This document shows positions 2,587 through 57,233 of a DNA stretch of 64,000 nt, in pieces (within the stretch, counting starts at the first letter, position 1; the number at the start of each line of letters is the position of its first letter). The DNA is from a bacterium (GTDB lineage Bacteria > Patescibacteriota > Minisyncoccia > Sungbacterales > HO2-52-23): NCBI GenBank assembly GCA_030697705.1, contig JAUYPE010000006.1, positions 4,686 to 68,685 of the forward strand, in the 5' to 3' direction. The notes below the pieces were generated by a model, which saw nothing but the letters and a program-made list of their open reading frames with translations, had not been told where the DNA came from and did not search any database. Made by a program: the position numbers and the translations under genes.

Positions 2587-5500
2587 ATGACCGATAAGGA
2601 GAAAAAAGCGACGATTCCGGAGCGGGAGGAGGCCATTTTGAAGTTCTGGGAGGAGCGGGAGATCTTCCGGAAGTCGGTGGAAAAGAACAAGAAAGGAAAA
2701 GAATTTGTTTTTTACGAAGGGCCGCCAACGGCAAACGGTCTGCCCGGCATCCATCATGTGGAGGCGCGGGCGTTTAAGGATATTATTCCGCGTTATAAAA
2801 CGATGCGGGGATTTTTCGTCCCGCGCCGTGCCGGATGGGATACGCACGGCCTGCCGGTTGAGCTACAGGTGGAAAAAGAGCTTGGCTTAAAAAATAAGCA
2901 GGATATTGAAAAATACGGTATTGGTGCGTTTAACGCCAAGGCGAAAGAATCCGTCTGGCGCTATAAAGAGGAGTGGGAAAAACTGACGAAGCGGATGGGA
3001 TTCTGGATTGATATGGACAATCCCTACATCACGTACAGCGCTCCCTATATGGAGAGTTCGTGGTGGATTATCCAGCAATTCTGGAAAAAGGGTTTACTGG
3101 AGGAGGACTTTAAGGTCGTTCCATGGTGCACGCGATGCGCTACCGGCTTGTCATCTCATGAATTGGCGCAGGGGTATAAAAAAACGACTGACACGGCCGT
3201 GTATGTGAAGTTTAAACTGGAACCCAATCAAAAGATCGGTGATTTTATGACGGATGACAAGACCTATATTCTGGCGTGGACGACAACGCCATGGACATTG
3301 CCGGGGAATGTGGGGTTAGCGGTGAATCCGAAGCTTGAGTATGTAAAGATAAAATGGGCGAGATCCTTCTATAAGACCCAAGAAGGACAGGAATTGCCGA
3401 TGCATCTAGACGAATATTATGTCATCGCAAAAGATATCTTTCTAAAAGTTGCAGAAAAACATCCAGGCGAAACAAATCGCTATGGCTGGCGGGGTCAGAC
3501 ATATGATATTATTGAAACTTTTACTGGGGAAAAGATTGTAGGGCAAAGATACAAGTCACTCTTCCATGTTAGCGAACTCAAAACAGAAACGGCATACAGG
3601 ATATATTCAGCTGATTTTGTTTCAGCGAGTGAGGGTACCGGTGTGGTGCATACTGCGGTGATGTACGGAGAGGATGACTATGTGTTGGGAAAAAAAGTGG
3701 GATTGCCAACATTTCATACTGTTGACGAGGCGGGAAGATTTGTTGGTTCACTTACAGACGGACTTGCGGGATTGTATGTAAAAGATTCCAGAACGGAAGA
3801 AAAAATTCTTGAAATTTTAAAAAGTAAAAACCTTCTCTTTGCGCAGGAAAAGTACGAGCACGACTATCCGTTCTGCTGGAGGTGCGGGACGCCATTGCTC
3901 TACTACGCGCGGAAGGGATGGTGGGTGAAGACGACGAAGGTGAAGAAAGAACTTATCGCGAATAACGAAACAATCAACTGGGTGCCGGAGCATATTAAGC
4001 ACGGGCGGTTTGGCGAATTTTTGCGTGAGGTGAGGGATTGGGCATTTTCGCGCGAGCGGTATTGGGGAACACCCTTGCCTATTTGGAAGTGCCAAAGTGA
4101 AAAATGCGATCATGTTGAGGTTATAGGTTCGCGCACTGAAATGGCCGAACACGGGAAAAAACTTTATAACGAATATTTCGTCATGCGCCATGGCGAGGCG
4201 ATGACGAATAGCAGAGGGATTATCTCATCGGAGGAGAATAAATACCCGCTCACCGCGAAAGGTCGCGCGCAAGTACAACGCGCGGCGGCACGGCTGAAAA
4301 AACAAGGCATTGATATTGTTATCGCCTCGCCGATTTTGCGTACGCGCGAGAGTGCGAAGATAATCGCAAAGATATTGGCTCTACCCGATGAGAATGTGCA
4401 TTTTGATGCGCGATTAAAGGAGATTGCGCTAGGGTCGTATGAAGGCAAAAAGGAGGGAGAGTATCATCGCGCGTTTAAAAATATACGGGAAAAACTTACC
4501 ACCGCGCTCCCAGGCGGCGAATCGCTTGACGAGGTGCGCCGGAGAATGATGGCGGCGCTTATTGATGCGGAGAAAAAGCATGGGGGTAAAAAAATCCTTT
4601 TCGTGAGCCACGACTATCCGTTGTGGATGCTCATGCGCGGAGCGGAGGGGTACTCGGGCGAGGAGGCGATTGCTCTTCGCGAAAATAACGGAAAAGAAAT
4701 GATGCATTGCGGCTATGCCGAGGTCTACGGGCTCACGCATGCCGACCTGCCGCGTGACGAAAAAGGCGAGGTGAATCTTCACCGACCGTATGTTGATGAT
4801 TTTGTTTTTCCGTGCGTAACATGCGGTGGCATGATGCGGCGTACGCCCGAAGTTGCCGATGGGTGGTTTGACTCGGGTGTTATGCCGTTTGCGCAGAGCC
4901 ACTATCCGTTTAGCTCTGTCCGTCATCCTGAACCCTTCGGACACCCTCAGGATAAACTCCGTGAAGGATCCCGTAAGTTAACGGAATTCCTCGCCCCGAC
5001 GATCGGGACTCGGAATGACGAGGGTGGAGGTTTGGCTTTCCCCGCCGACTATATTTGTGAGGGAGTTGACCAGACGCGCGGATGGTTCTATACGCTTCTT
5101 GCTGTCGCAACACTCCTTGGAAAAAAAGCACCATACAAAAATGTCATTTCGCTCGGGCATGTGCTGGATAAAAACGGACAGAAGATGTCCAAGTCAAAAG
5201 GCAACACGGTAAACGCGTTGGAGATTATTGAGAAGTACGGCATTGATGCCCTGCGCTGGTATTTCTACACGATCAATCCGCCCGGCGAGCCCAAAAAGTT
5301 TGACGAACGGGATGTGGCGAATAGATATCGTGGATTCATTCAGACGCTCTGGAACAGTTTTGTTTTGTTTGACACCTATGTCACTTCGGTTCCCGCAAGA
5401 ATTCCATCAACCATAAAACTTTCTATGCTTGATCGCTGGATTCTGGCGCGGATGGATGAGGTGACAGCGGAGGTGACGCGTGCGCTGGATAGATACGATA

Positions 5501-6282
5501 TTATGGCTGCGGGGCGGGCGCTGGAGGAGTTTTGTATCAACGACTTCTCGCAGTGGTTCTTGCGCCGCTCGCGCCGTCGGTTCCAGCATCCGGCGAGTAA
5601 AAATGAGTATGCTGGCGTTACCGTGGTTACAGGCGCCGTGCTGATGCGCTTAGCTTTTTTAACAGCACCGTTCACGCCGTTTTTGAGCGAGATGATTTTT
5701 CAGGAGTTAAAGAAAAAAATGAAACTTAAAGAGGAAAGCGTGCATCTGGCGGCGTGGCCCGCAGCGCCGAAGAAAATAAGTGCGGCGGACAAAAAACTGA
5801 TATTAGATATGCAGGTAGTTCGTGCGATCTGCTCTGAGGCTCTAAAATTGCGTGCTGAGGTGGGGATGAAGGTGCGCCAACCGTTGAGCAAATTACAAAT
5901 TACGAATGCTGAATTACAAAAAAAGACGGAGCTTCTGGCATTAATTCAAGATGAGGTAAACATAAAAAATATTTCATTTGGGAAAGAAATGTTTCTTGAT
6001 ACGGTACTGACGGTAGAACTTCGTGAAGAGGGGATGGTGCGCGAAGTCATCCGCAATATCCAAGAGATGCGGCGCGATCTGGGACTCACGCCGAGCCACA
6101 AAATCCGCGCGCAATTTTCCGCTACATCAAATGCGCTGGATGAAGTGCTTGGCCGATGGCAAAAAACAATCATGCGCGATGCGGGCGTAAAGGCGTTTAT
6201 TATTGCAGGCAAACGGGTGTTTGCTGCCGAGCGGGAATTAAAATTTGACGATGCGATGCTGTGGTTAGGGATTAAGAAGTAA
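2587..6282 (+). CDS. ileS: isoleucyl-tRNA synthetase (type 2 / eukaryote-like) carrying an inserted histidine-phosphatase domain
   Basis: HIGH-type motif PPTANGLPGIHHV; GWDTHGLPVE; KMSKSKGN; WFDSGVMPF; 1231 aa, unusually long because of an insertion of about 190 aa with RHGE...SHD phosphoglycerate-mutase-family motifs between the ...VIGS and LHRPYVDD segments. Confidence 0.9.
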   Translation: MTDKEKKATIPEREEAILKFWEEREIFRKSVEKNKKGKEFVFYEGPPTANGLPGIHHVEARAFKDIIPRYKTMRGFFVPRRAGWDTHGLPVELQVEKELGLKNKQDIEKYGIGAFNAKAKESVWRYKEEWEKLTKRMGFWIDMDNPYITYSAPYMESSWWIIQQFWKKGLLEEDFKVVPWCTRCATGLSSHELAQGYKKTTDTAVYVKFKLEPNQKIGDFMTDDKTYILAWTTTPWTLPGNVGLAVNPKLEYVKIKWARSFYKTQEGQELPMHLDEYYVIAKDIFLKVAEKHPGETNRYGWRGQTYDIIETFTGEKIVGQRYKSLFHVSELKTETAYRIYSADFVSASEGTGVVHTAVMYGEDDYVLGKKVGLPTFHTVDEAGRFVGSLTDGLAGLYVKDSRTEEKILEILKSKNLLFAQEKYEHDYPFCWRCGTPLLYYARKGWWVKTTKVKKELIANNETINWVPEHIKHGRFGEFLREVRDWAFSRERYWGTPLPIWKCQSEKCDHVEVIGSRTEMAEHGKKLYNEYFVMRHGEAMTNSRGIISSEENKYPLTAKGRAQVQRAAARLKKQGIDIVIASPILRTRESAKIIAKILALPDENVHFDARLKEIALGSYEGKKEGEYHRAFKNIREKLTTALPGGESLDEVRRRMMAALIDAEKKHGGKKILFVSHDYPLWMLMRGAEGYSGEEAIALRENNGKEMMHCGYAEVYGLTHADLPRDEKGEVNLHRPYVDDFVFPCVTCGGMMRRTPEVADGWFDSGVMPFAQSHYPFSSVRHPEPFGHPQDKLREGSRKLTEFLAPTIGTRNDEGGGLAFPADYICEGVDQTRGWFYTLLAVATLLGKKAPYKNVISLGHVLDKNGQKMSKSKGNTVNALEIIEKYGIDALRWYFYTINPPGEPKKFDERDVANRYRGFIQTLWNSFVLFDTYVTSVPARIPSTIKLSMLDRWILARMDEVTAEVTRALDRYDIMAAGRALEEFCINDFSQWFLRRSRRRFQHPASKNEYAGVTVVTGAVLMRLAFLTAPFTPFLSEMIFQELKKKMKLKEESVHLAAWPAAPKKISAADKKLILDMQVVRAICSEALKLRAEVGMKVRQPLSKLQITNAELQKKTELLALIQDEVNIKNISFGKEMFLDTVLTVELREEGMVREVIRNIQEMRRDLGLTPSHKIRAQFSATSNALDEVLGRWQKTIMRDAGVKAFIIAGKRVFAAERELKFDDAMLWLGIKK
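4150..4770 (+). other. in-frame histidine phosphatase (PGAM/CobC-like) domain inserted in ileS
   Basis: YFVMRHGEAMTNSRG...PLTAKG...ASPILRTRESA...LPGGESLDEV...ILFVSHDYPL: RHG catalytic motif, second His in SHD, GGES region; matches the histidine phosphatase superfamily layout. Confidence 0.7.
4918..5022. repeat. palindromic MITE-like repeat, copy A (in-frame inside ileS)
   Basis: gtccgtcatcctgaac...gaaggatcccgtaagttaacggaattcctcg...ctcggaatgacg; shares termini and core with copies at 10559, 18995, 48428, 51198, 54079, 57143; 105 nt = 35 codons, translated as SVRHPEPFGHPQDKLREGSRKLTEFLAPTIGTRNDEG between the conserved HYPF and FPADYI segments. Confidence 0.7.
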
Positions 6283-6288
6283 GAACTC

Positions 6289-6813
6289 ATGCACACCACC
6301 GAAGGTATTATTCTGTCCAAAACGCCGAGCGGGGAGGCGGATGAGCTGGTCACGATGTACACGTGTGCGTACGGCAAGGTGCGTGCGCTCGTGCAGGGCG
6401 TAAAAAAAGAAGAGGCGAAACTGCGCGGGCATCTTGAGGTTTTGTCTCTCTGCACTATAGGTTTGGTGGCGGGTAAAAACGGCGAACGGCTCGTCTACGC
6501 GGAGCTGAAAAACTTCTGGTCGCGCATTCGTACCCATGCAGGCAAGCATTATGCGGCGCATTATATGGTACGGCGCATGGACAATGCGTGCTTTCCCGGC
6601 GAGCGCGACGAGCGGATGTGGACGCTTCTTACGGCGGCATTCATTATTCTTGAGGAGCAGGATTTTACCACACGCGAATTGCAGGATTTTTTGCTCGGTT
6701 TTGAAAAACAGCTTGTGGCGCATTTGGGCTACGGTGACGCGGGAATCGGCTCCACACTCGGTCCGCTCGTGGCGCAGGGAACATTGGCGCGGTATACTGG
6801 AAGCGGTGCTTAG
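6289..6813 (+). CDS. recO: DNA repair protein RecO (short form)
   Basis: N-terminal OB-fold pattern EGIILSKTPSGEADELVTMYTCAYGKVRALVQGVKK typical of RecO; 174 aa (shorter than canonical). Confidence 0.55.
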   Translation: MHTTEGIILSKTPSGEADELVTMYTCAYGKVRALVQGVKKEEAKLRGHLEVLSLCTIGLVAGKNGERLVYAELKNFWSRIRTHAGKHYAAHYMVRRMDNACFPGERDERMWTLLTAAFIILEEQDFTTRELQDFLLGFEKQLVAHLGYGDAGIGSTLGPLVAQGTLARYTGSGA

Positions 6814-6835
6814 TAGGAAGAAAAGAAACCATTTC

Positions 6836-8779
6836 ATGGGTAAAATAGAGGATTTACAACAAGAGCTCTACGCCAAAGAAGGAGACGAGGTGGTTGCCAA
6901 ACGCATGCATCGCCGCGTTTTTTTCCCTGAGCGCATGCGGTCTCCCGAGGCGCATTGGTCCGAGGACGAGGATGTGCGCGCGCCGACAAAAAAAAATAAG
7001 AGTCTCGGGGCGGGTCAACTTATCCTCATCGGACTGGGAGTCTTTCTGTTGATCGGTGCCGTCGTGGCAGCCATTTTTTATTTCATACCGCGCGGTGTGG
7101 GAGTTGAAATAACCATTCGCGACAACGGGCCGGTGGAGTCGGGAGAAGTAGTGACGATCCCCATCTCCATTCGCAATACGTCAAGTGTCGCACTGGAAAA
7201 TGCCGATCTTTCGGTGGTGGTGCCGCCGAGCGCATTAGTCAAGGAAAACGGTTTGGAAATTTCCGCCCCGCCCCGCATCTTACGTCACATCGGCACGATT
7301 CGGGCGGGCGAGGAGGTCGTGGTTGATATTACCGTGCGGTTGTTCGGTGCCGAGGGCGATGAAGAGACGATTGAGGTGGATGTGCTCTATCAACCCGAGA
7401 ACTTAAAGGCACGTTTTTCGGCAAAGCAGAAAAAAAAGTTTATCATCGGGCGCGTGCCGATCGCAATCTTTCTTGAATTTCCCGATACGCTTGCCAAAGG
7501 TCAGGAGACGGAAATTATAGTGCGCTACAGCTCGCAGGCGCGGGACACCTTTCCTGCAATGGCGGTTATGGTTGATTATCCTCCGGGCTTCACATTTCTC
7601 TCCGCCGAGCCTGCGCCTCTTGTCGAGAGTCGTATTTGGGATGTCGGGCGGGTAGATCCGGGCAAGGAGGGTGTGATCAAAATTCATGGTACCGTTTCTG
7701 GCAACGACGCGGAGACGAAGGCGTTTGGAGCGCATATCGGTACCTACAATATAGTGACGAAAGAATGGAAACAATACGCGCAGGTTGCTCGCGAGGCGCA
7801 CATCGCCGTCACGCCTCTTGCGGTGCATAGTGCACTTACCCAGGTGCACGAAGGATCTATCAAGCCGGGTGATCCGCTTTCGTTTGCGGTAAGTTATCAA
7901 AATAATACGCCATTTGCCCTTAAAAATATCTCACTGCAGGTTGAGGTGAACGAGGTAGCGTCCTTGGCAACTGGCGTTACTCTTGCTGGCGGGGAACCTA
8001 GTGTTCTTATCCCGATAAGTTTGCAAATCGGCGACGGCGGCGTGGTGGACGGGACGACGCATCTTGTGCGATGGACGCCGGCAGGAACGGACGCGCTCCG
8101 CGAGTTGGCATCCGAAGCATCGGGTGTTGTCCATTTTTCTGTGAATACTCGCGCTCGTCCGGCGGTGCGGAGCGATCGGGATCAAAATATCTCCGTTCGC
8201 GTCCGGGCAAAAATTACCGCTGCCGGCGTGCCGCAAGAGCTTGCCGGAACGGATCTTGATTCTGAAGAAACGACTGATTTTAAAGTCCGCTCGCTCCTGC
8301 TTACCGCAGGACAGAGCCGTTGGGGCGCCGCGCCGTTCGTAAATACCGGACCGCTTCCGCCGCGCGTGGGGCACAAGACCACCTATGCGGTTTTGTGGGA
8401 GATACGAAATTTCACTAACGATCTTCAAGAGGTGATGGTAGAAGGTACGCTCCCGCCCAATGTGCGGTGGGAGAATACGACGGCGCCCTCAAGCGCGCGC
8501 GTCAGCTATGACGGCGCATCGGGTCTGGTGCGCTGGAGTCCGGGAATTATTCCTGCCGGTACGGGTATTCTCAATCCCGCGCTGTCCCTCGCGTTCCAAG
8601 TGTCTGTTACGCCGGCGGATATTGAAGTAGGAAGGGTCTTGGATCTGGTAAAAAATATTCGCGTGCGGGGCAAAGATGCCTTTACCGGCGATGCGGTTGA
8701 ATCAGTAATACAAACAGTTACGACGAGCGTGGTTGATGTGCAAACAACGGGAGTGCGACTAGACACGGTGGCGCCGTAG
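6836..8779 (+). CDS. large membrane-anchored protein with repetitive beta-rich extracytoplasmic region (function unknown)
   Basis: ATG at 6836 (MGKIEDLQQ) chosen to avoid overlap with recO; TM helix LILIGLGVFLLIGAVVAAIFYFI; about 570 aa of V/T/G-rich repeats. Confidence 0.55.
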   Translation: MGKIEDLQQELYAKEGDEVVAKRMHRRVFFPERMRSPEAHWSEDEDVRAPTKKNKSLGAGQLILIGLGVFLLIGAVVAAIFYFIPRGVGVEITIRDNGPVESGEVVTIPISIRNTSSVALENADLSVVVPPSALVKENGLEISAPPRILRHIGTIRAGEEVVVDITVRLFGAEGDEETIEVDVLYQPENLKARFSAKQKKKFIIGRVPIAIFLEFPDTLAKGQETEIIVRYSSQARDTFPAMAVMVDYPPGFTFLSAEPAPLVESRIWDVGRVDPGKEGVIKIHGTVSGNDAETKAFGAHIGTYNIVTKEWKQYAQVAREAHIAVTPLAVHSALTQVHEGSIKPGDPLSFAVSYQNNTPFALKNISLQVEVNEVASLATGVTLAGGEPSVLIPISLQIGDGGVVDGTTHLVRWTPAGTDALRELASEASGVVHFSVNTRARPAVRSDRDQNISVRVRAKITAAGVPQELAGTDLDSEETTDFKVRSLLLTAGQSRWGAAPFVNTGPLPPRVGHKTTYAVLWEIRNFTNDLQEVMVEGTLPPNVRWENTTAPSSARVSYDGASGLVRWSPGIIPAGTGILNPALSLAFQVSVTPADIEVGRVLDLVKNIRVRGKDAFTGDAVESVIQTVTTSVVDVQTTGVRLDTVAP

Positions 8780-8872
8780 TGTGCTTGTGGTCGGCGGGGC
8801 GCGCGTGGTAGGGTGTCCATGGCGTTATTCTTCCCTATCTTGTAAATTTTTTTGTGTATGACCGATAATCGC

Positions 8873-10183
8873 ATGGAAAAAATCGTCTCGCTCGCCAAGC
8901 GGCGCGGTTTTATCTTCCCCGGCTCCGAAATCTACGGCGGGCTTGCTGGTACGTGGGACTACGGTCCGCTCGGCGTGGAGCTGAAGAATAATCTTAAGCG
9001 CGAATTTTGGCGCACTCTTGTGTATGACCGCGAAGATACGGTGGGTCTGGACGCCGCGATTATGATGAACCCAAAAGTATGGGAAGGGTCGGGTCATACG
9101 CAAGCGTTTTCCGATCCGTTGGTGGAATGTAAAACATGTCACGAACGCTTTCGCGCCGATCATCCGGAAGAGATTGAGGAGCATGCCGCGGGTCACACAA
9201 AGAAAAAGGAGCCGGTCAGCTGGACGGAACCACGGCAATTTAATTTATTGGTTGAGGCAAAACTCGGTGCGGTTGAGGGCGAAAAAACGACCGTATATCT
9301 GCGGGGCGAAATTACGCAGGGCGTGCATGTGAACTTTAAAAATATTATTGATTCGATGCACCGTAAGTTGCCATTCGGTGTGGTGCAAGTCGGCAAGGCG
9401 TTTCGCAATGAGATTACGCCGGGGAATTTTACCTTTCGTTCCCGCGAGTTTGAGCAAATGGAATTGCAATATTATATGAAGCCGGATGAACGTAGCGCGA
9501 AAGAAGTTTTTGACTATTGGAAAAAAGAACGGATGCGATGGTATGTGTCGCTCGGTATGAATGCAGGGCACCTGCGATTTCGCGAGCATGAAGAAGATGA
9601 AAAAGCGCACTATGCGCGCGCCGCGTGGGATATTGAGTATGAAAGTCCGATCGGCTGGAAAGAGATGGAGGGGATTCATCATCGCGGCGACTGGGATCTG
9701 TCGCGGCATTCACAATTCAGCACGGTTGATCTGACCTACTTTGACGAAGAGATAAAAGAGCGCTATGCACCCTGGGTTATTGAGACATCCGGCGGAGTAG
9801 ATCGTGCCCTTCTCTTCTTTTTGCTTGACGCATACAGTGAGCAAGAGGATAAGGGAAAGATTCGGGTTGTTTTAAAACTTCATCCGAAATTAGCTCCCTG
9901 CAAAGCCGCCGTTTTTCCGCTTGTTGCCAATAAGCCGCAGTTGGTTGAAAAAGCACGTAAAATCTACAGCGATTTAAAAAAACACATGGTCGTCGCATGG
10001 GACGACCGCGGTAATATCGGCAAGCGCTATTATGCACAGGATGAAATCGGCACGCCACACTGCATCACGATTGATTATCAGACGCTTGAAGATGATACCG
10101 TCACCGTCCGTGATCGCGATACAATGAAGCAAGACCGAGTAGTCGTCGAAACATTATCGTCATATCTTGAAAGTAAAGAATAA
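8873..10183 (+). CDS. glyQS: glycyl-tRNA synthetase (dimeric class II, GlyQS type)
   Basis: MEKIVSLAKRRGFIFPGSEIYGGLAGTWDYGPLGVELKNN is a canonical GlyRS N-terminus; class II motifs; the ATG at 8873 fits better than the TTG at 8852. Confidence 0.9.
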   Translation: MEKIVSLAKRRGFIFPGSEIYGGLAGTWDYGPLGVELKNNLKREFWRTLVYDREDTVGLDAAIMMNPKVWEGSGHTQAFSDPLVECKTCHERFRADHPEEIEEHAAGHTKKKEPVSWTEPRQFNLLVEAKLGAVEGEKTTVYLRGEITQGVHVNFKNIIDSMHRKLPFGVVQVGKAFRNEITPGNFTFRSREFEQMELQYYMKPDERSAKEVFDYWKKERMRWYVSLGMNAGHLRFREHEEDEKAHYARAAWDIEYESPIGWKEMEGIHHRGDWDLSRHSQFSTVDLTYFDEEIKERYAPWVIETSGGVDRALLFFLLDAYSEQEDKGKIRVVLKLHPKLAPCKAAVFPLVANKPQLVEKARKIYSDLKKHMVVAWDDRGNIGKRYYAQDEIGTPHCITIDYQTLEDDTVTVRDRDTMKQDRVVVETLSSYLESKE

Positions 10184-10540: not shown

Positions 10541-10558
10541 ACAATACCCATGTATTCT

Positions 10559-10646
10559 GTCCGTCATCCAGAGCGTAGCGAAGGATCCCGTACGATCTCA
10601 GTATACTGAATACTAGCGGGATTCCTCGTTATACTCGGAATGACGG
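10559..10646. repeat. palindromic MITE-like repeat, copy D (intergenic, full length)
   Basis: gtccgtcatccagagcgtagcgaaggatcccgtacgatctcagtatactgaatactagcgggattcctcgttatactcggaatgacgg; terminal inverted repeats ccgtcatcc / ggaatgacgg; central palindrome tcagtatactga. Confidence 0.75.
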
Positions 10647-13598: not shown

Positions 13599-14093
13599 TC
13601 ATCCGACGAGCCACAAAGCGAGTACGAGAATTGCTCCTTGAAAGGGGATACCGATGAACGGGTAAGCGCCGAGGCGGATGTTCGTGTGCATGGTATCATG
13701 GAAGTGTTGCACTGGGCGCAAAAGCTCCGCGCGGCGCGTGTAATACACGCCTTGCAAAAAGTCCGGCAGTGCGCCACCAATAACAGCAAGAAGCACCCAT
13801 GAAAATTCACGGACGGTTGTCGGGTGGGCGAGGGCGAGCACGAGCGTGAGACCGAGGATGCCGTCGCACGCCATGTTTCGTGCATCTTTGAGAAAGTGAG
13901 TGCTGTGAAAATGCCATCGGCGCCCTTCGGCGTTCTTTGCCGCACTGATGGATGAGAGGGGGTAGTCCCAATGGGGAACGGCGTCCGAAAGATAATGTGA
14001 GGCGATAGCGATGCAAAAAATAATGATGGGGTGGGCGTGCATGAACGGCTTGGTCAGTGCTACGGCAATTGCGGCGTGGGTAGTGAGGGTCAT
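13599..14093 (-). CDS. putative membrane-bound metal-dependent hydrolase (YdjM/DUF457-like)
   Basis: Start chosen at MTLTTHAAIAVAL (ATG complement at 14091..14093) to avoid overlap with metG; His-rich N-terminus, GALPDF motif, TM helices; the longer 287-aa ORF is a frame-open extension into metG. Confidence 0.4.
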   Translation of the reverse strand: MTLTTHAAIAVALTKPFMHAHPIIIFCIAIASHYLSDAVPHWDYPLSSISAAKNAEGRRWHFHSTHFLKDARNMACDGILGLTLVLALAHPTTVREFSWVLLAVIGGALPDFLQGVYYTRRAELLRPVQHFHDTMHTNIRLGAYPFIGIPFQGAILVLALWLVG

Positions 14094-14141
14094 ATATATG
14101 ATAGTATAGCGGGGACTTTTGGAAAAAGAAAGTTTTACGAC

Positions 14142-15626
14142 ATGTCTTCTATGAACGAAAAAAATAAAAAGTTTTATCTTACGACCGCCATTCCGTATGT
14201 GAACGCAAAACCACACATCGGTCACGCGCTTGAATTTGTGCAGGCGGATGTTATTGCGCGGGTGCACCGGCTTCGCGGCGAGGAGGTATGTCTGCTGTCG
14301 GGCGGGGACGAGAATGCGCTTAAAAACGTGCAGGCGGCGGAGCAGGAGGGAGCGCCCGTGCAGGAGTTTATTGACCGCAATGCGGAATCGTTTGCCGAAC
14401 TTGCCCGCCAGCTTGATGTGCAGTTTGATGTATTCCAAAAAGGGAGCGACCGCACGCACCATTTTCCTTCAAGCCAGGAGCTTTGGCGGCGATGCGCGGC
14501 GGCAGGAGATATTTATAAAAAATCATACGAGGGATTGTATTGTGTCGGTTGTGAGACGTTTTATGCCGTTGACGAATTGAACGGGAGTGGCGAGTGCTTT
14601 GAGCATCCGGGAAAAAAACTTGAACTTGTCGCCGAGGAAAATTATTTTTTCCGCCTCTCGCGATATCAAAATGAATTAATCAAGTTGATTGAGACGGACG
14701 CGCTGGCGATCATGCCGCGCCATCGCAAAAACGAAGTAACTTCTTTTTTAAAACAACCGTTGCAGGACATCAGTATTTCACGCACGAACGCACGGGCGAA
14801 AAATTGGGGCGTGCCGGTGCCGGGGGACGATACCCAGCGCATTTATGTCTGGTTTGACGCGCTCAACATCTACCAGTCCGGCGTGGGATTCGGATGGGAC
14901 GAGGAGCGATATCAAAAGTGGTGGCCGGCGGATGCGCACCTTATCGGCAAAGGAATCCTGCGTTTTCATGCGGTGTACTGGCCGGCGTTTCTCCTCTCCG
15001 CACAACTGCCGGTGCCCAAGGCGCTGTATGTGCACGGTTATATCACGATTGACGGGCAGAAAATGTCCAAGACGCTTGGCAATGGGATTGACCCTTTTGG
15101 TTTAATTGAAAAATATGGCGCGGATCCGGTGCGCTACTACCTCTTGCGCGAAATTCCCTCGGGCGAGGATGGCGACTTCAGTATTAAAAAGTTTGAGGAG
15201 CGCTATAATGGCGACTTGGCAAACGGACTGGGTAATCTCGTGGCACGCGTGGCAACGCTCGGAGAAAAGATCAGTCCTATCTCCTTAAACGATGTCTATC
15301 CAAAAGAGCAACCACGGACTAAGGTTATAGATGAAGCGTATGAAAAGAGGGTAGCGGAATTTCGTTTGAATGAAGCATTGGAATTGATTTGGGGACTTAT
15401 CTCGTTAGGAGATAAGAATATCAATGATGGAAAACCATGGGCGGTATCCGATGAAGCTGAATTACGCCGTATCATCGGCGATGCGTGCCATCTTATCAGC
15501 ACAGTATCGCGTTTGGTCGCTCCATTTATACCAGAGACGGCAAGAAAGATAAATGAACAAATCAGTGTGGGCGAAATGGAAATTATTATAAAAAGGGGTG
15601 CGAATATTTTTCCACGATTGCGATAA
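14142..15626 (+). CDS. metG: methionyl-tRNA synthetase (short form)
   Basis: LTTAIPYVNAKPHIGHALE (HIGH), zinc knuckle CVGCETF...CFEH, KMSKTLGN; start at MSSMNEKNKKFY. Confidence 0.85.
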   Translation: MSSMNEKNKKFYLTTAIPYVNAKPHIGHALEFVQADVIARVHRLRGEEVCLLSGGDENALKNVQAAEQEGAPVQEFIDRNAESFAELARQLDVQFDVFQKGSDRTHHFPSSQELWRRCAAAGDIYKKSYEGLYCVGCETFYAVDELNGSGECFEHPGKKLELVAEENYFFRLSRYQNELIKLIETDALAIMPRHRKNEVTSFLKQPLQDISISRTNARAKNWGVPVPGDDTQRIYVWFDALNIYQSGVGFGWDEERYQKWWPADAHLIGKGILRFHAVYWPAFLLSAQLPVPKALYVHGYITIDGQKMSKTLGNGIDPFGLIEKYGADPVRYYLLREIPSGEDGDFSIKKFEERYNGDLANGLGNLVARVATLGEKISPISLNDVYPKEQPRTKVIDEAYEKRVAEFRLNEALELIWGLISLGDKNINDGKPWAVSDEAELRRIIGDACHLISTVSRLVAPFIPETARKINEQISVGEMEIIIKRGANIFPRLR

Positions 15627-16948: not shown

Positions 16949-19600
16949 ATGTCAATCATGCGCTACAATCCCAAAAAAATTGAAGCAAAGTGGCAGAAAA
17001 AATGGCTCGCGGAAAAAATCTACGAGCCGGATTTGACTTCTCAACGAAAAAATTCTCGACAAGATCAAACCGTAAAATTGCGCAAACCGTTTTATAATCT
17101 CATGATGTTTCCGTATCCGTCCGCGGAAGGACTCCACATCGGCGGGATGCGGACGTTTACTGGTGTGGATATATACGGGCGCATTAAACGGATGCAGGGA
17201 CATGACGTTTTTGAGCCCATCGGGCTTGATGCATTCGGTATTCACTCGGAAAACTATGCGCTCAAAACGGGGCGGCACCCGATGAAGCAAGCGGTTATTT
17301 TGAAAAAAAACTTCTACCGCCAGCTTGCCGCAATGGGCAACGGTTTTGCGTGGGATGAACGATTAGAAACGAACGATCCGGACTACTACCGCTGGACGCA
17401 GTGGATCTTTGTGCAGATGTTTCGGCACGGTCTTGCGTACCGCAAAAAACAGGCGGTGAACTGGTGTCCTTCGTGCAAAACGGTGCTTGCCGACGAGCAG
17501 GTCATCACGGGGCGGTGTGAACGGTGCGATAGTGAAGTAATGAAAAAAGAACTGGAACAGTGGTTTTTCCGCACGACAAAGTATGCCGAGCGCCTCCTCA
17601 ATAATCTTGAAAAAATTGACTGGTCGGAACGCGTGAAGATTGCGCAGAGGAATTGGATTGGGAAGTCGGATGGCGCAATAATTCGCTTTCCCCTTACCGA
17701 GATTCCCAGTCAGCCCGACGGTAAACATTTTGTTGATGTTTTTACCACGCGGCCCGATACGCTCTTCGGCGCGACCTTTCTTGTGATCTCTCCGGAGCTG
17801 GCGAAATTCTGGATGGATATCGGGTGGCGGGTGGGCGATGATGTGCGCGACTATGTAAAAACCACGCTTGCCGAGCGGGCGATACAAGCACGAGACGCAG
17901 AACCGAAAAAAACGGGCGTGTTCTCCGGCATCTATGGTATTAACCCCGCAAACCAAGAAAAAATTCCCGTCTGGATTGCGGACTATGTGCTCGCCGGATA
18001 CGGTACCGGTGCCATTATGGCGGTACCTGCACACGACGAACGCGATTTTGAGTTTGCAAAAAAGTATAATCTGCCGATAAAAATCGTTGTCTGTCCGCAC
18101 TATCCGGAGAAGACATGTCCGATTTTGGACGAGGCATACACAGGCGAGGGACACTTGGTTGGTTCAAGTGTATTTGATGGTATGACTTCAATTGCCGCGC
18201 GGGCGACTATTGTCAAACATGTCGGCGGGAAGATAACTATTCAATATCGGCTCCGCGATTGGCTGATCTCTCGTCAGCGCTATTGGGGACCGCCGATTCC
18301 GATGATCTATTGCGAGGCATGCGCACGCAATAAAAAAGGTGAGCGAAACGACACGCCCGGGTGGTATACGGTGCCGGAAAAAAATCTTCCGGTGAAACTG
18401 CCATTTATCAAAAACTTTAGACCTACTGGAACGGATCGGTCGCCACTCGCAAGCGTCGCTTCTTTTTATAAAGTTCGATGTCCGGGGTGTAAAAAAGAGG
18501 CGCGGCGCGAAACGGACGTCTCGGATACCTTTTTGGATTCCGCATGGTATTTTTTGCGCTATCCGAATGTAAAGAATAAAAAAGCCGCATGGGATGCGGC
18601 GATAACCAAAAAAATACTTCCCGTTGATTCATACATCGGCGGGGCGGAGCACTCGGTTTTACATCTCATGTACGCGCGCTTTTTGACGATGGCGTTACAT
18701 GATATTGGTGTTTTGAATTTTTCCGCCAAAGGCGGATCCGCCTCCGGCGGAGAAGAACCGTTTCCAAAATTTCGGGCGCACGGATTGATTACCAAAGACG
18801 GTGCGAAGATGTCCAAGTCAAAGGGCAATGTCGTGAGTCCCGACGAGTACATCAAAGCATACGGCGCCGATGCGGTGCGGATGTACTTGGCGTTTTTGGC
18901 TCCCTTTGAGCAGGACGGAGATTTCCGCGATACGGGCATCCGTGGTATGACGCGGTTTCTTGAGCGCGTTTGGCGGATGATGCAAAACTTCTCCAGCCGT
19001 CATCCTGAAGGAGCGAAGCGACTGAAGGATCCCGCAAAGTTACGGGATGCTTCGCCTACGGCTCAGCATGACATACAGCAGGTGCTCCATCGGACGATAA
19101 AGAAAGTTACGGAAGATATAGAGCACCTGCACTACAACACCGCCATTTCCGCGCTTATGGTTTTGCTCAATAGTTTTGAAAAACATCCGGAGGAGGTCGC
19201 GCAAGAATACGGAGGGGTATTTTTAAAGCTTCTGGCGCCATTTGCCCCGCATGTAGCGGAAGAGTTGTGGCAGCAGATGAATGCTCATACTAATGCTAAA
19301 TTAAAAATGCCAAATGATAAAAAAAAGCATTCAGCATTCAGCATTCAGTATTCAGCATTTCGTTCTGTTCATCGCGAGCCGTGGCCGAAATATAATCCAC
19401 GTTTGATCATGGAACAAACGTTTGAACTTGTCGTGCAGGTCAACGGCAAGGTCCGCGGCCGCGTATCTGTTTCTAGAGGAATAAGCGAGGCGGATGTGGT
19501 CGCCACAGCTCGCGCATTGGAGTCGGTAAAACCTTATTTAGCTGCACTGCCAAAAAAAACAATCTTTGTTCCCGATAAACTTGTAAACTTTGTCGTCTAG
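16949..19600 (+). CDS. leuS: leucyl-tRNA synthetase
   Basis: MMFPYPSAEGLHIGGMRTFTGVDIYGR...GLDAFGIHSE...KMSKSKGN; 883 aa; contains MITE copy B and a heptamer SSR in-frame. Confidence 0.92.
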   Translation: MSIMRYNPKKIEAKWQKKWLAEKIYEPDLTSQRKNSRQDQTVKLRKPFYNLMMFPYPSAEGLHIGGMRTFTGVDIYGRIKRMQGHDVFEPIGLDAFGIHSENYALKTGRHPMKQAVILKKNFYRQLAAMGNGFAWDERLETNDPDYYRWTQWIFVQMFRHGLAYRKKQAVNWCPSCKTVLADEQVITGRCERCDSEVMKKELEQWFFRTTKYAERLLNNLEKIDWSERVKIAQRNWIGKSDGAIIRFPLTEIPSQPDGKHFVDVFTTRPDTLFGATFLVISPELAKFWMDIGWRVGDDVRDYVKTTLAERAIQARDAEPKKTGVFSGIYGINPANQEKIPVWIADYVLAGYGTGAIMAVPAHDERDFEFAKKYNLPIKIVVCPHYPEKTCPILDEAYTGEGHLVGSSVFDGMTSIAARATIVKHVGGKITIQYRLRDWLISRQRYWGPPIPMIYCEACARNKKGERNDTPGWYTVPEKNLPVKLPFIKNFRPTGTDRSPLASVASFYKVRCPGCKKEARRETDVSDTFLDSAWYFLRYPNVKNKKAAWDAAITKKILPVDSYIGGAEHSVLHLMYARFLTMALHDIGVLNFSAKGGSASGGEEPFPKFRAHGLITKDGAKMSKSKGNVVSPDEYIKAYGADAVRMYLAFLAPFEQDGDFRDTGIRGMTRFLERVWRMMQNFSSRHPEGAKRLKDPAKLRDASPTAQHDIQQVLHRTIKKVTEDIEHLHYNTAISALMVLLNSFEKHPEEVAQEYGGVFLKLLAPFAPHVAEELWQQMNAHTNAKLKMPNDKKKHSAFSIQYSAFRSVHREPWPKYNPRLIMEQTFELVVQVNGKVRGRVSVSRGISEADVVATARALESVKPYLAALPKKTIFVPDKLVNFVV
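18995..19073. repeat. palindromic MITE-like repeat, copy B (in-frame inside leuS, short form)
   Basis: agccgtcatcctgaaggagcgaagcgactgaaggatcccgcaaagttacgggatgcttcgcctacggctcagcatgac; translated SSRHPEGAKRLKDPAKLRDASPTAQH in the variable linker before the conserved HRTIKKVTEDIE segment; boundaries approximate. Confidence 0.55.
19327..19360. repeat. tandem heptanucleotide repeat (gcattca x about 4.7) inside leuS
   Basis: gcattcagcattcagcattcagtattcagcattt preceded by an A8 run; encodes HSAFSIQYSAF within an expanded loop near the LeuRS C-terminus. Confidence 0.7.
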
Positions 19601-39303: not shown

Positions 39304-39309
39304 AAAGTA

Positions 39310-39393
39310 TGGGCGAGGCGGGATTTGAACCCGCACGGGATTACTCCCACACGATTTTGAGTCGTGATCGTCTGCCAATTCCGACACTCGCCC
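39310..39393 (-). tRNA. tRNA-Leu (anticodon CAA), class II with long variable arm
   Basis: Manual fold: acceptor GGGCGAG/CTCGCCC + A73; D-arm TCG-GAATTGGCAGA-CGA; anticodon stem CACGA/TCGTG with loop CTCAAAA (CAA); variable arm GGGAGTAATCCC; T-arm GCGGG-TTCAAAT-CCCGC; no encoded CCA. Confidence 0.85.
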
Positions 39394-39442
39394 ATTTCAC
39401 GGTTGATGATAGGATAAAAATCTGCTAAAGTAAAGGTATTCT

Positions 39443-47941: not shown

Positions 47942-50080
47942 TCACAAAAGTGCCGATTCGTTTCTCGCCTCCTCAACCGCCTCGCCGAGCATTTGGTAAT
48001 AAAGATTCAAGCCGATTTTATTGATGGCGCCCGATTGCTTGCGACCAAGAATATTGCCCGCGCCGCGGATTTCCAAATCGCGCAGGGCGAGCTGATATCC
48101 TGCGCCAAGTTCGGCGTATTCTTGCAGTGCCTCCAGCCGTTCTGTCGCTTTTTGGGTAAGATGTTTGGGACGATACAAAAAATACGCATACGCCTGATCC
48201 GTCCCACGGCCAATCCTACCGCGGAGCTGGTGCGCCTGCGCGAGTCCGAGCCGCGTCGCGTCGTCTACGATGAGCGTATTGGCAGATGAGATATCCAAAC
48301 CGTTTTCAATAATAGTGGTGGCAAGAAGAATATCTATTTTTCCCTCGCGAAACTCATTCATCGTGCGGATGATCGCGTCTTCCCCCATCCGGCCGTGCAT
48401 GATCGCGATGCGGGGTTTAACCCTTATTCCGTCATCCAGAGTCCCGACTCGTCGGGACGAAGGATCCCGTAAATTAACGGGATTCCTCTCCGCCCCAGGC
48501 GGCTCGGAATGACGGACAAAACGGGTAAATCCCAGCTTAGCTTTTTTTGCAAGCATGCGCTCAAGTTTCTGCTTCACCGCGCCGATCGTTTCTATCCTAT
48601 TATGGAGAAAATAAACCTGCCCGCCGCGTTCGCGTTCGCGAAGAATCGCCTCGGCAATGAGCTTGGCGGAATAAGGGAGGACGAGCGTCTGGATGGCGAG
48701 GCGGCCGGGCGGCGGGGTATCCAGTGTGGAAATGTCGCGAAGCCGCGCAAGGGTAAGTTGCATAGTGCGGGGGATGGGCGTTGCCGAGAGTGAGAGTATA
48801 TCAACATCGGCGCAAATTTCTTTTAAGCGTTCTTTTTGTTTAACACCGAAGCGCTGTTCTTCGTCCAGAATTACCATACCGAGATTCTTGAACGCCACAT
48901 CGCGTGAGAGGAGCCGGTGTGTGCCGATGATGCAATCAATTTTTCCATTCTGCACCTCGTCAAGCATGCGTGTTTGTTCTGCGGGAGAGGCGAGCCGGGA
49001 AATCATGCGGACGGAGACAGGGAGAGCGGCGAATCGCTCGCGGAACGTCCGTTCGTGCTGTGCGGCGAGGACGGTGGTGGGAGCCAAAACGGCGACCTGT
49101 GCGCCGGAGGCGATAATGCGCATCGCCGCGCGGATGGCAACCTCCGTTTTACCGAATCCCACATCGCCGCAGAGGACGCGATCCATGGGTGCATCACGTG
49201 CCATGTCGGCGAGGATTTCGTTTTCCGCTCGCGACTGGTCTTCTGTTTCTTGATAAGGGAAACTTTCGCGGAGTCGTGCTTCCATGTCGTTGTCCCCCGT
49301 GCGGGGAGGGCGCCGTGCGAGGGAACGCTTGGCATAGAGTGCAAGAAGTGCCCGCGCAAGTTTTTCTGTTTCTTCCTTTACTTTTCGTTTGGTATTCATC
49401 CACAGCGAACCGCCCAAACGATGTACGCGGGGTAACTCAAACCCCACATAGGGCGAGAGCCGCTCGTACTGCACGCGCGGTACAAATAGACGATCCGGCT
49501 CCGCTCCCTCGCGCGGCGGCGCGTATTCTATGATGAAAAAGTCATCCGTCGGTATGTCCGTTCCCAAAATGTTTTTTTGCCGCGCGTCTGTCCCCATGCC
49601 GTGAAAGATACCAATGCCGTGGTCAATATGGACGACGAAACTTCCCGGAGCGAGGTTCTCCATCGTTGTTTTTTGCGAGATGCGCGGTTTTGCGTGCGGC
49701 AGTTCTTCCGTCGGCGGGCGCTGGACAAGCGATGCGATCGTATTTCCCGAAAACTCAATCAAATAAGGTACAGCCGTATTAATCGGCCAGATCTCTATGA
49801 CCCCGCCGCGTACGGCGAAAAGCCCGCGACTCCGCACCGTTTGCACGCGCTCATAGCTAAAACCGGATAGCCGCCGTGCAAGTTCCGCCGGCTTCATGAC
49901 CAAGTCCTGCTCAACAAAAAATGCATGCTCCCGCCACCACGGATTCGCCATCCGCGCCTTCTTAATTGATTCCTGATTTTCCGCGTACCACAAAACATCC
50001 CTCTCCAAATTTTGGGGGGTTACCGAGACGATGAGGAGTTCTTGTGGTGGTGCCGCGCCCTGCGGCGCTTTGCCAGCCAT
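47942..50080 (-). CDS. mfd: transcription-repair coupling factor Mfd, short form lacking the UvrB-homology N-terminal domains
   Basis: Walker A CGDVGFGKTEVAIRAA, motif II DEEQRFGV, C-terminal TRCF domain; 712 aa versus about 1150 canonical; contains MITE copy C in-frame. Confidence 0.8.
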   Translation of the reverse strand: MAGKAPQGAAPPQELLIVSVTPQNLERDVLWYAENQESIKKARMANPWWREHAFFVEQDLVMKPAELARRLSGFSYERVQTVRSRGLFAVRGGVIEIWPINTAVPYLIEFSGNTIASLVQRPPTEELPHAKPRISQKTTMENLAPGSFVVHIDHGIGIFHGMGTDARQKNILGTDIPTDDFFIIEYAPPREGAEPDRLFVPRVQYERLSPYVGFELPRVHRLGGSLWMNTKRKVKEETEKLARALLALYAKRSLARRPPRTGDNDMEARLRESFPYQETEDQSRAENEILADMARDAPMDRVLCGDVGFGKTEVAIRAAMRIIASGAQVAVLAPTTVLAAQHERTFRERFAALPVSVRMISRLASPAEQTRMLDEVQNGKIDCIIGTHRLLSRDVAFKNLGMVILDEEQRFGVKQKERLKEICADVDILSLSATPIPRTMQLTLARLRDISTLDTPPPGRLAIQTLVLPYSAKLIAEAILRERERGGQVYFLHNRIETIGAVKQKLERMLAKKAKLGFTRFVRHSEPPGAERNPVNLRDPSSRRVGTLDDGIRVKPRIAIMHGRMGEDAIIRTMNEFREGKIDILLATTIIENGLDISSANTLIVDDATRLGLAQAHQLRGRIGRGTDQAYAYFLYRPKHLTQKATERLEALQEYAELGAGYQLALRDLEIRGAGNILGRKQSGAINKIGLNLYYQMLGEAVEEARNESALL
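48428..48517. repeat. palindromic MITE-like repeat, copy C (in-frame inside mfd, read on minus strand)
   Basis: ttccgtcatccagagtcccgactcgtcgggacgaaggatcccgtaaattaacgggattcctctccgccccaggcggctcggaatgacgga; 90 nt = 30 codons; encodes VRHSEPPGAERNPVNLRDPSSRRVGTLDDG immediately before the conserved RIAIMHGRM segment. Confidence 0.65.
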
Positions 50081-51176: not shown

Positions 51177-51197
51177 AGTTAAAGCTTATGGTTTTTG

Positions 51198-51282
51198 TCC
51201 GTCATTCTGAACGCAGTGAAGAATCCCGTATGATTTCAGTATGTTGAACATTAACGGGATTCCTCGCTTCGCTCGGAATGAC
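51198..51282. repeat. palindromic MITE-like repeat, copy E (intergenic pth/lepB)
   Basis: tccgtcattctgaacgcagtgaagaatcccgtatgatttcagtatgttgaacattaacgggattcctcgcttcgctcggaatga. Confidence 0.75.
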
Positions 51283-54078: not shown

Positions 54079-54188
54079 GTCATTCCGAGCGTGAGCGACT
54101 GCCAGGAGGCGTCCCGTGAGGGGGGAATTCCGTTAATATTCAGCATACTGAAATTGTACGGGATCCTTCGCTACGCTCTGGATGACGG
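54079..54188. repeat. palindromic MITE-like repeat, copy F (intergenic, opposite orientation)
   Basis: gtcattccgagcgtgagcgactgccaggaggcgtcccgtgaggggggaattccgttaatattcagcatactgaaattgtacgggatccttcgctacgctctggatgacgg. Confidence 0.75.
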
Positions 54189-54201
54189 AGTTGTTTTTGC
54201 T

Positions 54202-57142: not shown

Positions 57143-57233
57143 CCGTCATTCAAGGTGTAGCGAAGGATTTTTCGTACGATTTCAGTATACTGAAAATAGT
57201 AACGGGATTCCTCGCGGGTGCTCGGAATGACGG
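57143..57233. repeat. palindromic MITE-like repeat, copy G (intergenic upstream of ftsA)
   Basis: ccgtcattcaaggtgtagcgaaggatttttcgtacgatttcagtatactgaaaatagtaacgggattcctcgcgggtgctcggaatgacgg. Confidence 0.75.

Follow-up and report, generated by a model that had tools for sequence, protein, structure and literature searches.

Results

The 64,000-nucleotide stretch of DNA analysed here ("the window"; positions 4,686 to 68,685 of contig JAUYPE010000006.1, Sungbacterales assembly GCA_030697705.1) carries an ileS gene, a single long open reading frame (ORF) of 1231 residues encoding an isoleucyl-tRNA synthetase (IleRS) within which a complete, apparently active histidine phosphatase is nested (Table 1). 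Sungbacteria lie within the Parcubacteria group of the Patescibacteria, a part of the candidate phyla radiation. The ORF scores 834.8 bits against the ileS model TIGR00392, above its cut-off of 621.4, and Pfam finds the class I catalytic domain (PF00133) split around a match to the histidine phosphatase family PF00300 (His_Phos_1). The best matches in the PDB are the IleRS of Thermus thermophilus (Tth) and the type-2 enzyme PmIleRS2 (E values of 1e-220 or better), as against 9e-85 for Staphylococcus aureus IleRS1, and the C-terminus has a PF19302 match and ARD/DUF5915 domains, not the zinc-binding domain of IleRS1. Every defining feature that was tested was found and, judged by its sequence, the host protein is a type-2 (IleRS2) member, in agreement with an earlier note on this DNA.

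The motifs of the synthetase itself are, on the same grounds, intact. The class I signature has the non-canonical form GIHH, and P-G-I-H-H is common to the whole Parcubacteria IleRS family; the G/AXHH motif is a natural and active variant of IleRS2, where it has been linked to mupirocin hyper-resistance (Brkic et al. 2023, PMC10485003). The CP1 editing domain is present, residues 303-428 matching the isolated Tth editing domain 1WK8 (E 7e-27), and its motifs WTTTPWTLPGN and GTGVVH are conserved among homologs. Since the GIHH signature, the KMSKS loop and the editing domain have all been kept, the protein probably remains the isoleucine-charging enzyme of the cell. In the connective peptide CP3, whose zinc-binding motif has been described for the Tth enzyme (PMC7191050), C502 and C507 are invariant in 102 homologs.

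It is in CP3 that the additional domain lies. The alignment to T. thermophilus IleRS (1ILE) breaks at residue 525 (Tth 482) and restarts at residue 730 (Tth 489), and that to P0022, a 70%-identical relative without the insert, jumps from about residue 526 to 721; from these breaks we place the insert at about residues 520-720 (nucleotides 4144-4746), which bears out the earlier note's placement at 4150-4770. The insertion point falls between the two halves of the zinc knuckle, C-x4-C (C502/C507) and C-x2-C (C743/C746), whose cysteines match the zinc site in CP3 of the Tth enzyme. The junctions read ...EMAEHGKKLYNEY... (...KKLYNEY...) on the N-terminal side and ...LTHAD/LPRDE... on the C-terminal side.

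The profile search suggested in the earlier note places the insert well above the gathering threshold of PF00300, and the catalytic residues R534, H535, R585 and H675 can be aligned with those of PhoE. Both the alpha/beta fold of the family and the catalytic core of its branch 1 (the Arg and His of RHG, the second Arg, the acidic donor and the second His) are found. Other motif positions are LT..G at residues 555-559, SP.LRTRES at 581-589, GGES at 642-645 and SHD at 674-676. All of the hallmark motifs that had been listed earlier are thus present, but the catalytic acid is, by alignment to PhoE, E612 in 'RLKE' and not the glutamate of GGES (E645), although the latter is also invariant. Conservation was assessed in 163 sequences, comprising 126 copies nested in IleRS and 37 encoded adjacent to ileS (Table 1); the sole exception at R585 among the nested copies is an R585C. 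This conservation rules out a degenerate domain, which the earlier note had considered as one option.

An AlphaFold2 model of residues 495-770, built with 102 homologs, has a mean predicted local distance difference test (pLDDT) score of 92.4 and a predicted template modelling (pTM) score of 0.89. The structure prediction that had been suggested for the full protein is answered in part by a model of residues 1-1151, which folds confidently (pLDDT 89.6, pTM 0.86) and in which the insert reaches pLDDT 93-98. The pTM values of 0.86-0.89 suggest a defined orientation of the modelled phosphatase on the synthetase.

Table 1. Features of the ileS gene and its downstream block (window coordinates; aa, amino acid residues).
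Feature	Position	Strand	Description	Basis
ileS ORF	2587..6282	+	type-2 isoleucyl-tRNA synthetase with nested histidine phosphatase	profile matches, Tth alignment, AlphaFold model
Class I signature (aa 54-57)	2746..2757	+	G-I-H-H, non-canonical	read from sequence; aligned with HVGH of Tth IleRS
CP3 zinc knuckle, first half	4084..4107	+	W-K-C-QSEK-C (C502, C507)	aligned with Tth C461/C464
Inserted histidine-phosphatase module (aa 520-720)	4144..4746	+		insert-less relatives have a 6-residue linker, KKRAGA, here
PF00300 His_Phos_1 match (aa 531-697)	4177..4677	+		E 4.7e-35; 121.5 bits against a gathering threshold of 21.7
R534-H535-G536	4186..4194	+	phosphate-binding Arg and nucleophilic His	both residues without exception in 126 nested and 37 free-standing (adjacent) copies
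R585	4339..4341	+	second phosphate-binding Arg (PhoE R59 equivalent)	125/126 nested, 37/37 adjacent
E612	4420..4422	+	proton donor in 'RL.E' motif (PhoE E83 equivalent)	always Glu/Asp in 163 sequences
'GGES...R' segment	4519..4545	+	contains invariant E645 and R653	kept in 126 nested and 37 adjacent copies
H675	4609..4611	+	second catalytic His (PhoE H151 equivalent)	invariant in 163 sequences
CP3, second half	4747..4824	+	LPRDEKGEVNLHRPYVD...C743-x2-C746	alignments to Tth, homologs and P0022
KMSKS loop (aa 866-870)	5182..5196	+	intact	read from sequence; K866-S870 invariant among homologs
Downstream block	6289..10183	+	recO (6289..6813), DUF11-like protein, glyQS (8852..10183)	order same as at free-phosphatase loci

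The closest known proteins are small branch-1 phosphatases, namely PhoE/YhfR (1H2E, 1EBB), PspA (4IJ5), glucosyl-3-phosphoglycerate phosphatase (GpgP; 6S2Q, 4PZ9), the riboflavin-pathway enzyme HFP (9MMH) and CobC. Identity to these is only 22-27%, and the insert falls below every curated family cut-off: it scores 104.5 bits against 225 for the archaeal cofactor-dependent phosphoglycerate mutase (dPGM) model NF038349 (dPGM_arch), 23 against 81.7 for TIGR01258 (pgm_1), 66.6 against 162.9 for CobC (TIGR03162), 35.4 against 74.5 for SixA (TIGR00249) and 54.9 against 350 for PspA (NF045917). The insert is thus a complete and catalytically competent-looking branch-1 histidine phosphatase that is not a recognisable phosphoglycerate mutase. 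The known phosphatases are free-standing, whereas the present one is either nested in IleRS or, in other lineages, probably translationally coupled to it.

Several trivial explanations were examined. The identical protein has been assembled independently (Logan SRR13727529) and is represented at NCBI by a partial protein, P0001, from a Candidatus Sungbacteria metagenome-assembled genome (MAG), which argues against an assembly chimera; together with more than 120 homologs from many studies that carry the insert at the same site, the independent assembly rules out both a chimera and a frameshift artefact. An intein, already discounted in the earlier note, is ruled out by the lack of any Hint or intein match in Pfam and by the junctions, which have neither Cys/Ser/Thr on the N-terminal side nor His-Asn on the C-terminal side. 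A recent mobile insertion is ruled out as well, there being no flanking direct or inverted repeats beyond chance and a composition within the range of the window. All that speaks for an artefact or mobile element is a slightly raised GC content at third codon positions (0.59 in the insert, 0.53-0.54 in the IleRS body), itself within the range of other genes of the window, and we regard the chance that the feature is not real as negligible. The domain does not appear to belong to a defence system, as PADLOC gave no match and the sole PHROG match was to a family of unknown function. Neither a second copy of the phosphatase domain nor a second IleRS is present within the 64-kb window.

The survey of related IleRS sequences suggested in the earlier note shows that this architecture is not rare. 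An insert of about 200 residues is found at the same site in 104 of the 120 best IleRS relatives, the catalytic residues are kept in all but one of the more than 120 Parcubacteria IleRS that carry it, and hundreds of Parcubacteria MAG proteins in public databases share the architecture under automatic names only, such as 'class I tRNA ligase family protein'. Searched exhaustively with phmmer, a set of 1.84 billion representative proteins yielded 13,470 matches to the insert at E<=1e-3 and 1,031 at E<=1e-10. When the best 150 representatives were classified, the majority proved to be IleRS, whole or fragmentary, that carry the domain in CP3, and the others included about 45 complete free-standing proteins of 185-215 residues, four free tandem doubles and two fusions to TsaC (Sua5/YrdC). 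Among these 150 we found no other synthetase, no host protein beyond IleRS and TsaC, and no fusion of the phosphatase to the N-terminus of IleRS, though the loss of one stop codon would create one. Residues 2-177 of one free-standing protein, P0155 (195 residues), align with the insert at 41% identity, and hence nearly the whole coding unit appears to sit in CP3.

Some IleRS contain more than one copy. Additional phosphatase domains are located at about residues 777-816 in P0166 and, just past the KMSKS/stem-contact region, at about residues 932-946 in P0203 and P0255; in P0247 two copies stand in tandem in CP3. P0152 contains three copies that are complete and a fourth that is truncated; its IleRS part ends early, and the protein may be a fragment or result from misassembly. 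In these multi-copy proteins the complete copies keep the catalytic set, except that one copy in P0166 has Gln at the E645 and R653 positions. TsaC (Sua5/YciO/YrdC, of t6A synthesis) carries the phosphatase as a C-terminal fusion in five protein clusters (P0168, P0238 and P0274-P0276), and at one such locus (L091, 1964-3292) the fusion gene lies near genes for a CCA-adding enzyme, TGT, a queuosine-salvage protein and TruD. The TsaC of Patescibacteria has also been joined to many unrelated domains, MGMT in most cases but also TruB, 2H-phosphoesterase, NUDIX, GNAT and 3-methyladenine glycosylase (AAG), and for this reason we give the company of tRNA-maturation genes little weight as a functional clue.

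When one genome was scanned for each GTDB species, 306 loci proved to contain a relative of the phosphatase, and the best 80 of them were counted. The phosphatase is nested in IleRS at 26 of them. At 41 others it is a free gene upstream of ileS on the same strand (41 of the 54 free-standing genes; 39 of them directly upstream), and at the remaining 13 it is a free gene with no ileS in the flank that was fetched, three of these being at contig ends. Spacing between the adjacent gene and ileS is typically minimal: 21 of the 41 pairs overlap by 4-11 nucleotides and 16 are separated by 1-18, with two gaps of 41-46 and two of about 580-680. Not one of 67 loci has both the nested and the adjacent form. 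The phosphatase is thus specifically associated with IleRS throughout the lineage, in two forms that exclude each other. P0155 and P0237 are encoded immediately before an insert-less ileS, at a distance of 1 bp in one case and overlapping it by 10 bp in the other, and the genes at these loci run argS - phosphatase - ileS - recO - DUF11/DUF7619 protein - glyQS. At nested loci, argS comes directly before ileS in 17 of the 21 cases with enough upstream sequence. Since argS abuts ileS there and is separated from it by the phosphatase gene at adjacent loci, the slot between the two genes appears to have been emptied in the nested form. Two loci, L058 and L083, have two free-standing copies each, which in L083 are adjacent and overlapping.

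The order in which these forms arose was approached with a neighbour-joining tree of 179 IleRS sequences from which the insert had been removed (878 columns, 100 bootstraps). In this tree the adjacent-type lineages (Nealsonbacteria, Wildermuthbacteria, Paceibacterota and Minisyncoccales MAGs) branch off as a basal grade, and one large clade of at least 119 sequences, in which there is no adjacent-type IleRS, contains all 16 insert-less sequences and the majority of the nested ones. The insert-less sequences form two groups within this insert-bearing clade, and their last common ancestor includes an adjacent-type lineage in none of the 100 bootstraps; the present IleRS is monophyletic with P0002, P0022 and P0035 in 82 of 100. 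With midpoint rooting the root state is 'adjacent' in 90 of 100 bootstraps; rooted with the Tth and P. megaterium IleRS2 enzymes, 172 usable replicates gave an adjacent root in 92, an ambiguous one in 76 and a nested one in 4. One IleRS (L067) that lies inside the nested clade (94/100) has no insert and has an adjacent phosphatase gene instead, the nearest relatives of which are other adjacent-type genes (64% identity); here an adjacent gene looks to have replaced a lost insert. The history that we favour from these sequence comparisons is that of a coupled neighbouring gene that would have been relocated into CP3 once or a few times and then precisely deleted at least twice, leaving the 6-residue linker. 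Parsimony on these distance trees puts the number of events at 5-10.

Discussion

Aminoacyl-tRNA synthetases are among the best-studied enzymes, and the accessory domains that they carry normally serve in tRNA binding or editing. A conserved and apparently active phosphatase in a connective peptide of the catalytic domain, common to hundreds of Parcubacteria species, falls outside the IleRS architectures that have been described. In the literature searched we found no paper on a phosphatase in, or coupled to, IleRS, and two studies of IleRS domain evolution, from 2023 (PMC10485003) and 2026, make no mention of one; to this extent the earlier note's view of the architecture as undescribed is borne out.

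Our preferred reading, which we hold to be modestly probable, is that the insert is a catalytically competent phosphatase of the PhoE/PspA/GpgP type that acts as an accessory module of IleRS, the adjacent gene being the ancestral form that was later relocated into CP3. Most basal Parcubacteria lineages would make a separate phosphatase of about 195 residues from a gene immediately upstream of, and translationally coupled to, ileS; in the large derived clade that includes this Sungbacteria genome, the whole coding unit would have been shifted by about 1.5 kb in the downstream direction and have come to lie, in frame, in the surface loop of the CP3 zinc knuckle, a nesting that would tether the phosphatase permanently to the synthetase core. 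The phosphatase may hydrolyse a terminal phosphate on some ligand of the IleRS reaction cycle, the candidates that we prefer being a tRNA 3' end that carries a 2'/3'-phosphate, or else a by-product in the form of an adenine nucleotide or polyphosphate. That the phosphatase works with IleRS is suggested by the typical coupling of the neighbouring gene to ileS, by its move to an internal surface loop instead of an easy junction by N-terminal read-through, by the additional copies that have again landed inside IleRS, and by the defined orientation that the structural models suggest. Since two sub-lineages have deleted the module cleanly, it is probably useful but not essential.

A number of observations weigh against this reading. 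The argS-ileS-recO-glyS block is strongly syntenic in any case, and adjacency alone could therefore be historical. About 10 of the 51 free copies with enough flanking sequence are not beside ileS, and at one locus (L074, 4223-8942) the order is argS - phosphatase - recO with ileS elsewhere, so that here ileS has moved and the phosphatase has stayed. In the two insert-less loci that were inspected (P0022 and P0077), ileS directly follows argS and no phosphatase gene is found within 7-10 kb, and the position of the two insert-less groups inside the insert-bearing clade indicates that the module is dispensable. The insert diverges faster than the IleRS body (41% versus 56% mean pairwise identity), although its active site has remained unchanged despite this. 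Finally, with every curated NCBIfam cut-off missed there is no match to suggest a substrate, and the structural neighbours act on very different ones.

The phosphatase could instead be an ordinary housekeeping or metabolic phosphomonoesterase with no functional link to IleRS, a historical resident of the conserved argS-ileS-recO operon that was dropped into a tolerant surface loop by a rare rearrangement. It would have persisted there as a neutral fusion of two activities that are both needed. We take this to be the main rival, a serious if rather unlikely one. CP3 is a variable, peripheral subdomain (PMC7191050), the nearest structures are those of metabolic phosphatases, about 20% of the free copies do without ileS as a neighbour, the module has twice been lost cleanly, and streamlined Patescibacteria fuse unrelated genes freely, as the five TsaC clusters joined to this very phosphatase illustrate. 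Yet neutral capture does not readily explain why TsaC (2 cases) alone joins IleRS as a host protein in the top 150 representatives, why the easy N-terminal fusion is absent from the same set, or why extra insertions have occurred repeatedly, at three sites, specifically within IleRS. Nor would it predict the strict mutual exclusion of the nested and adjacent forms in 67 loci or, in L067, the apparent replacement of a lost insert by an adjacent gene. A glycolytic function, with the module serving as the organism's cofactor-dependent phosphoglycerate mutase embedded in IleRS, seems improbable to us: the short archaeal dPGM model is indeed its best NCBIfam match (104.5 bits) and the sequence fits the PROSITE-type pattern [LIVM]-x-R-H-G-[EQ]-x-x-x-N, but that score is under half of the cut-off of 225, pgm_1 gives 23 bits where its cut-off is 81.7, most adjacent-type copies have Gln in place of the pattern's Asn, and the closest sequences and structures (PhoE, PspA, GpgP, CobC and HFP) are all phosphatases. 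More improbable still is a role in protein dephosphorylation, with IleRS or a partner as the target, for example in opposition to HipA-type kinases that act on synthetases, given a SixA score of 35.4 bits where 74.5 would be needed, the lack of a PADLOC defence-system match, and the absence of any kinase from the neighbourhoods inspected.

Within the preferred reading of an IleRS accessory module, one can imagine a new, synthetase-linked kind of 'healing' activity, which would take a 2'/3'-phosphate or pyrophosphate off the CCA end of tRNA-Ile, or the terminal phosphate off an adenine-nucleotide by-product. Damaged ends of this kind may be left by ribotoxins, RNases or RelA/SpoT-type toxins, and their repair or clearance could then be combined with charging on one enzyme, the phosphatase being either tethered at CP3 or held as a translationally coupled subunit. 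Precedents for the candidate substrates that we prefer are the HD phosphatase domain found in bacterial CCA-adding enzymes and the histidine-phosphatase domain of mycobacterial MutT1, an enzyme in which the fold is able to take the terminal phosphate off a nucleoside diphosphate; MutT1 also appears, weakly, in the profile and structure comparisons of the insert. We consider the healing proposal unlikely as it stands, but if true it would make the Parcubacteria IleRS the first aminoacyl-tRNA synthetase with a built-in phosphatase step.

The enzyme may be compared with several known systems. Its host part has the domain order, CP3 zinc knuckle, C-terminal DUF5915-type domains and GXHH variant of T. 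thermophilus (1ILE) and Priestia megaterium IleRS2 (8C8U-8C9D), but these have only 6-20 residues where the present IleRS has an enzyme domain of 200. Other catalytic domains have been joined to nucleic-acid or nucleotide enzymes: NCBIfam recognises an IleRS with a GNAT domain (NF040702, 'ileS_w_GNAT'; score here 295, cut-off 1999), and phosphatase or other small catalytic domains are likewise found in the CCA-adding enzyme with its HD domain, in the RNase H/acid phosphatase Rv2228c (NF005567; 86 against 326) and in the Nudix plus histidine-phosphatase protein MutT1 of M. tuberculosis (NF052459, 9CXX; 19 against 475). All of these are end-to-end fusions, whereas the present domain is nested in a connective peptide of the Rossmann fold. 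The closest conceptual parallel is the duality of certain editing modules, which act in cis or in trans, as with the INS domain of ProRS and free YbaK, or the editing domain of AlaRS and AlaX. There too a single module is, depending on the lineage, an internal domain or a separate protein; those modules, however, are aminoacyl-tRNA deacylases with a known role in editing, while the present one is a predicted phosphatase with no known role in aminoacylation.

The three interchangeable states of the module (adjacent coupled gene, nested domain and absent) amount to a natural experiment on what a phosphatase does for IleRS, and the system is an unusually clear example of a neighbouring gene turned into an internal domain of its operon partner. 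If the phosphatase is coupled to tRNA or nucleotide handling, it would represent a new step in the quality control of aminoacylation in organisms with minimal genomes; if it is not, it would be a striking case of neutral gene nesting in streamlined ones. Among the genomes with the adjacent form is the MAG named Ca. Microsyncoccus archaeolyticus PMX.50 (L084), an organism that is presumably kept in co-culture and would then make experiments possible.

Other features of the window

The IleRS of the window contains a second extra segment, of 40 residues (SVRHPEPFGHPQDKLREGSRKLTEFLAPTIGTRNDEGGG; residues 777-816, window positions 4915-5034), that is missing from the 81%-identical P0002 and is disordered in the AlphaFold model (pLDDT <50). 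It is an in-frame copy of a dispersed palindromic repeat of about 95-120 nucleotides with an internal hairpin and with the ends TCCGTCATCC[TA]GA ... CTCGGAATGACG, and resembles the Rickettsia palindromic elements, which insert into coding genes. Other copies lie near 10556-10645, 18997-19053, 48428-48518, 51196-51282, 54079-54189 (reverse strand) and 57200-57232, and the end motif occurs 11 times in the window where 2.45 occurrences would be expected by chance. At the same site P0004 has a similar peptide and P0166 its second phosphatase domain; because all three insertions are located there, the loop between HYPF and FPADYI is an insertion hot spot.

Directly upstream of ileS, on the reverse strand, are a gene for an M23 peptidase (1296-2435) and one without a Pfam match (557-1207). 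In the independent assembly argS is found upstream of ileS behind three reverse-strand genes, the third of which lies near the first 500 bases of the window. These genes occupy the slot where, in related genomes, argS (with or without the phosphatase gene) abuts ileS.

Synthetase genes are clustered in the first 20 kb of the window, where IleRS is accompanied by GlyRS (8852-10183), MetRS and LeuRS (14031-15626 and 16949-19600); GlyRS, MetRS and LeuRS are without an inserted domain. A single tRNA gene, for tRNA-Leu (CAA), is present in the 64 kb, at 39309-39394.

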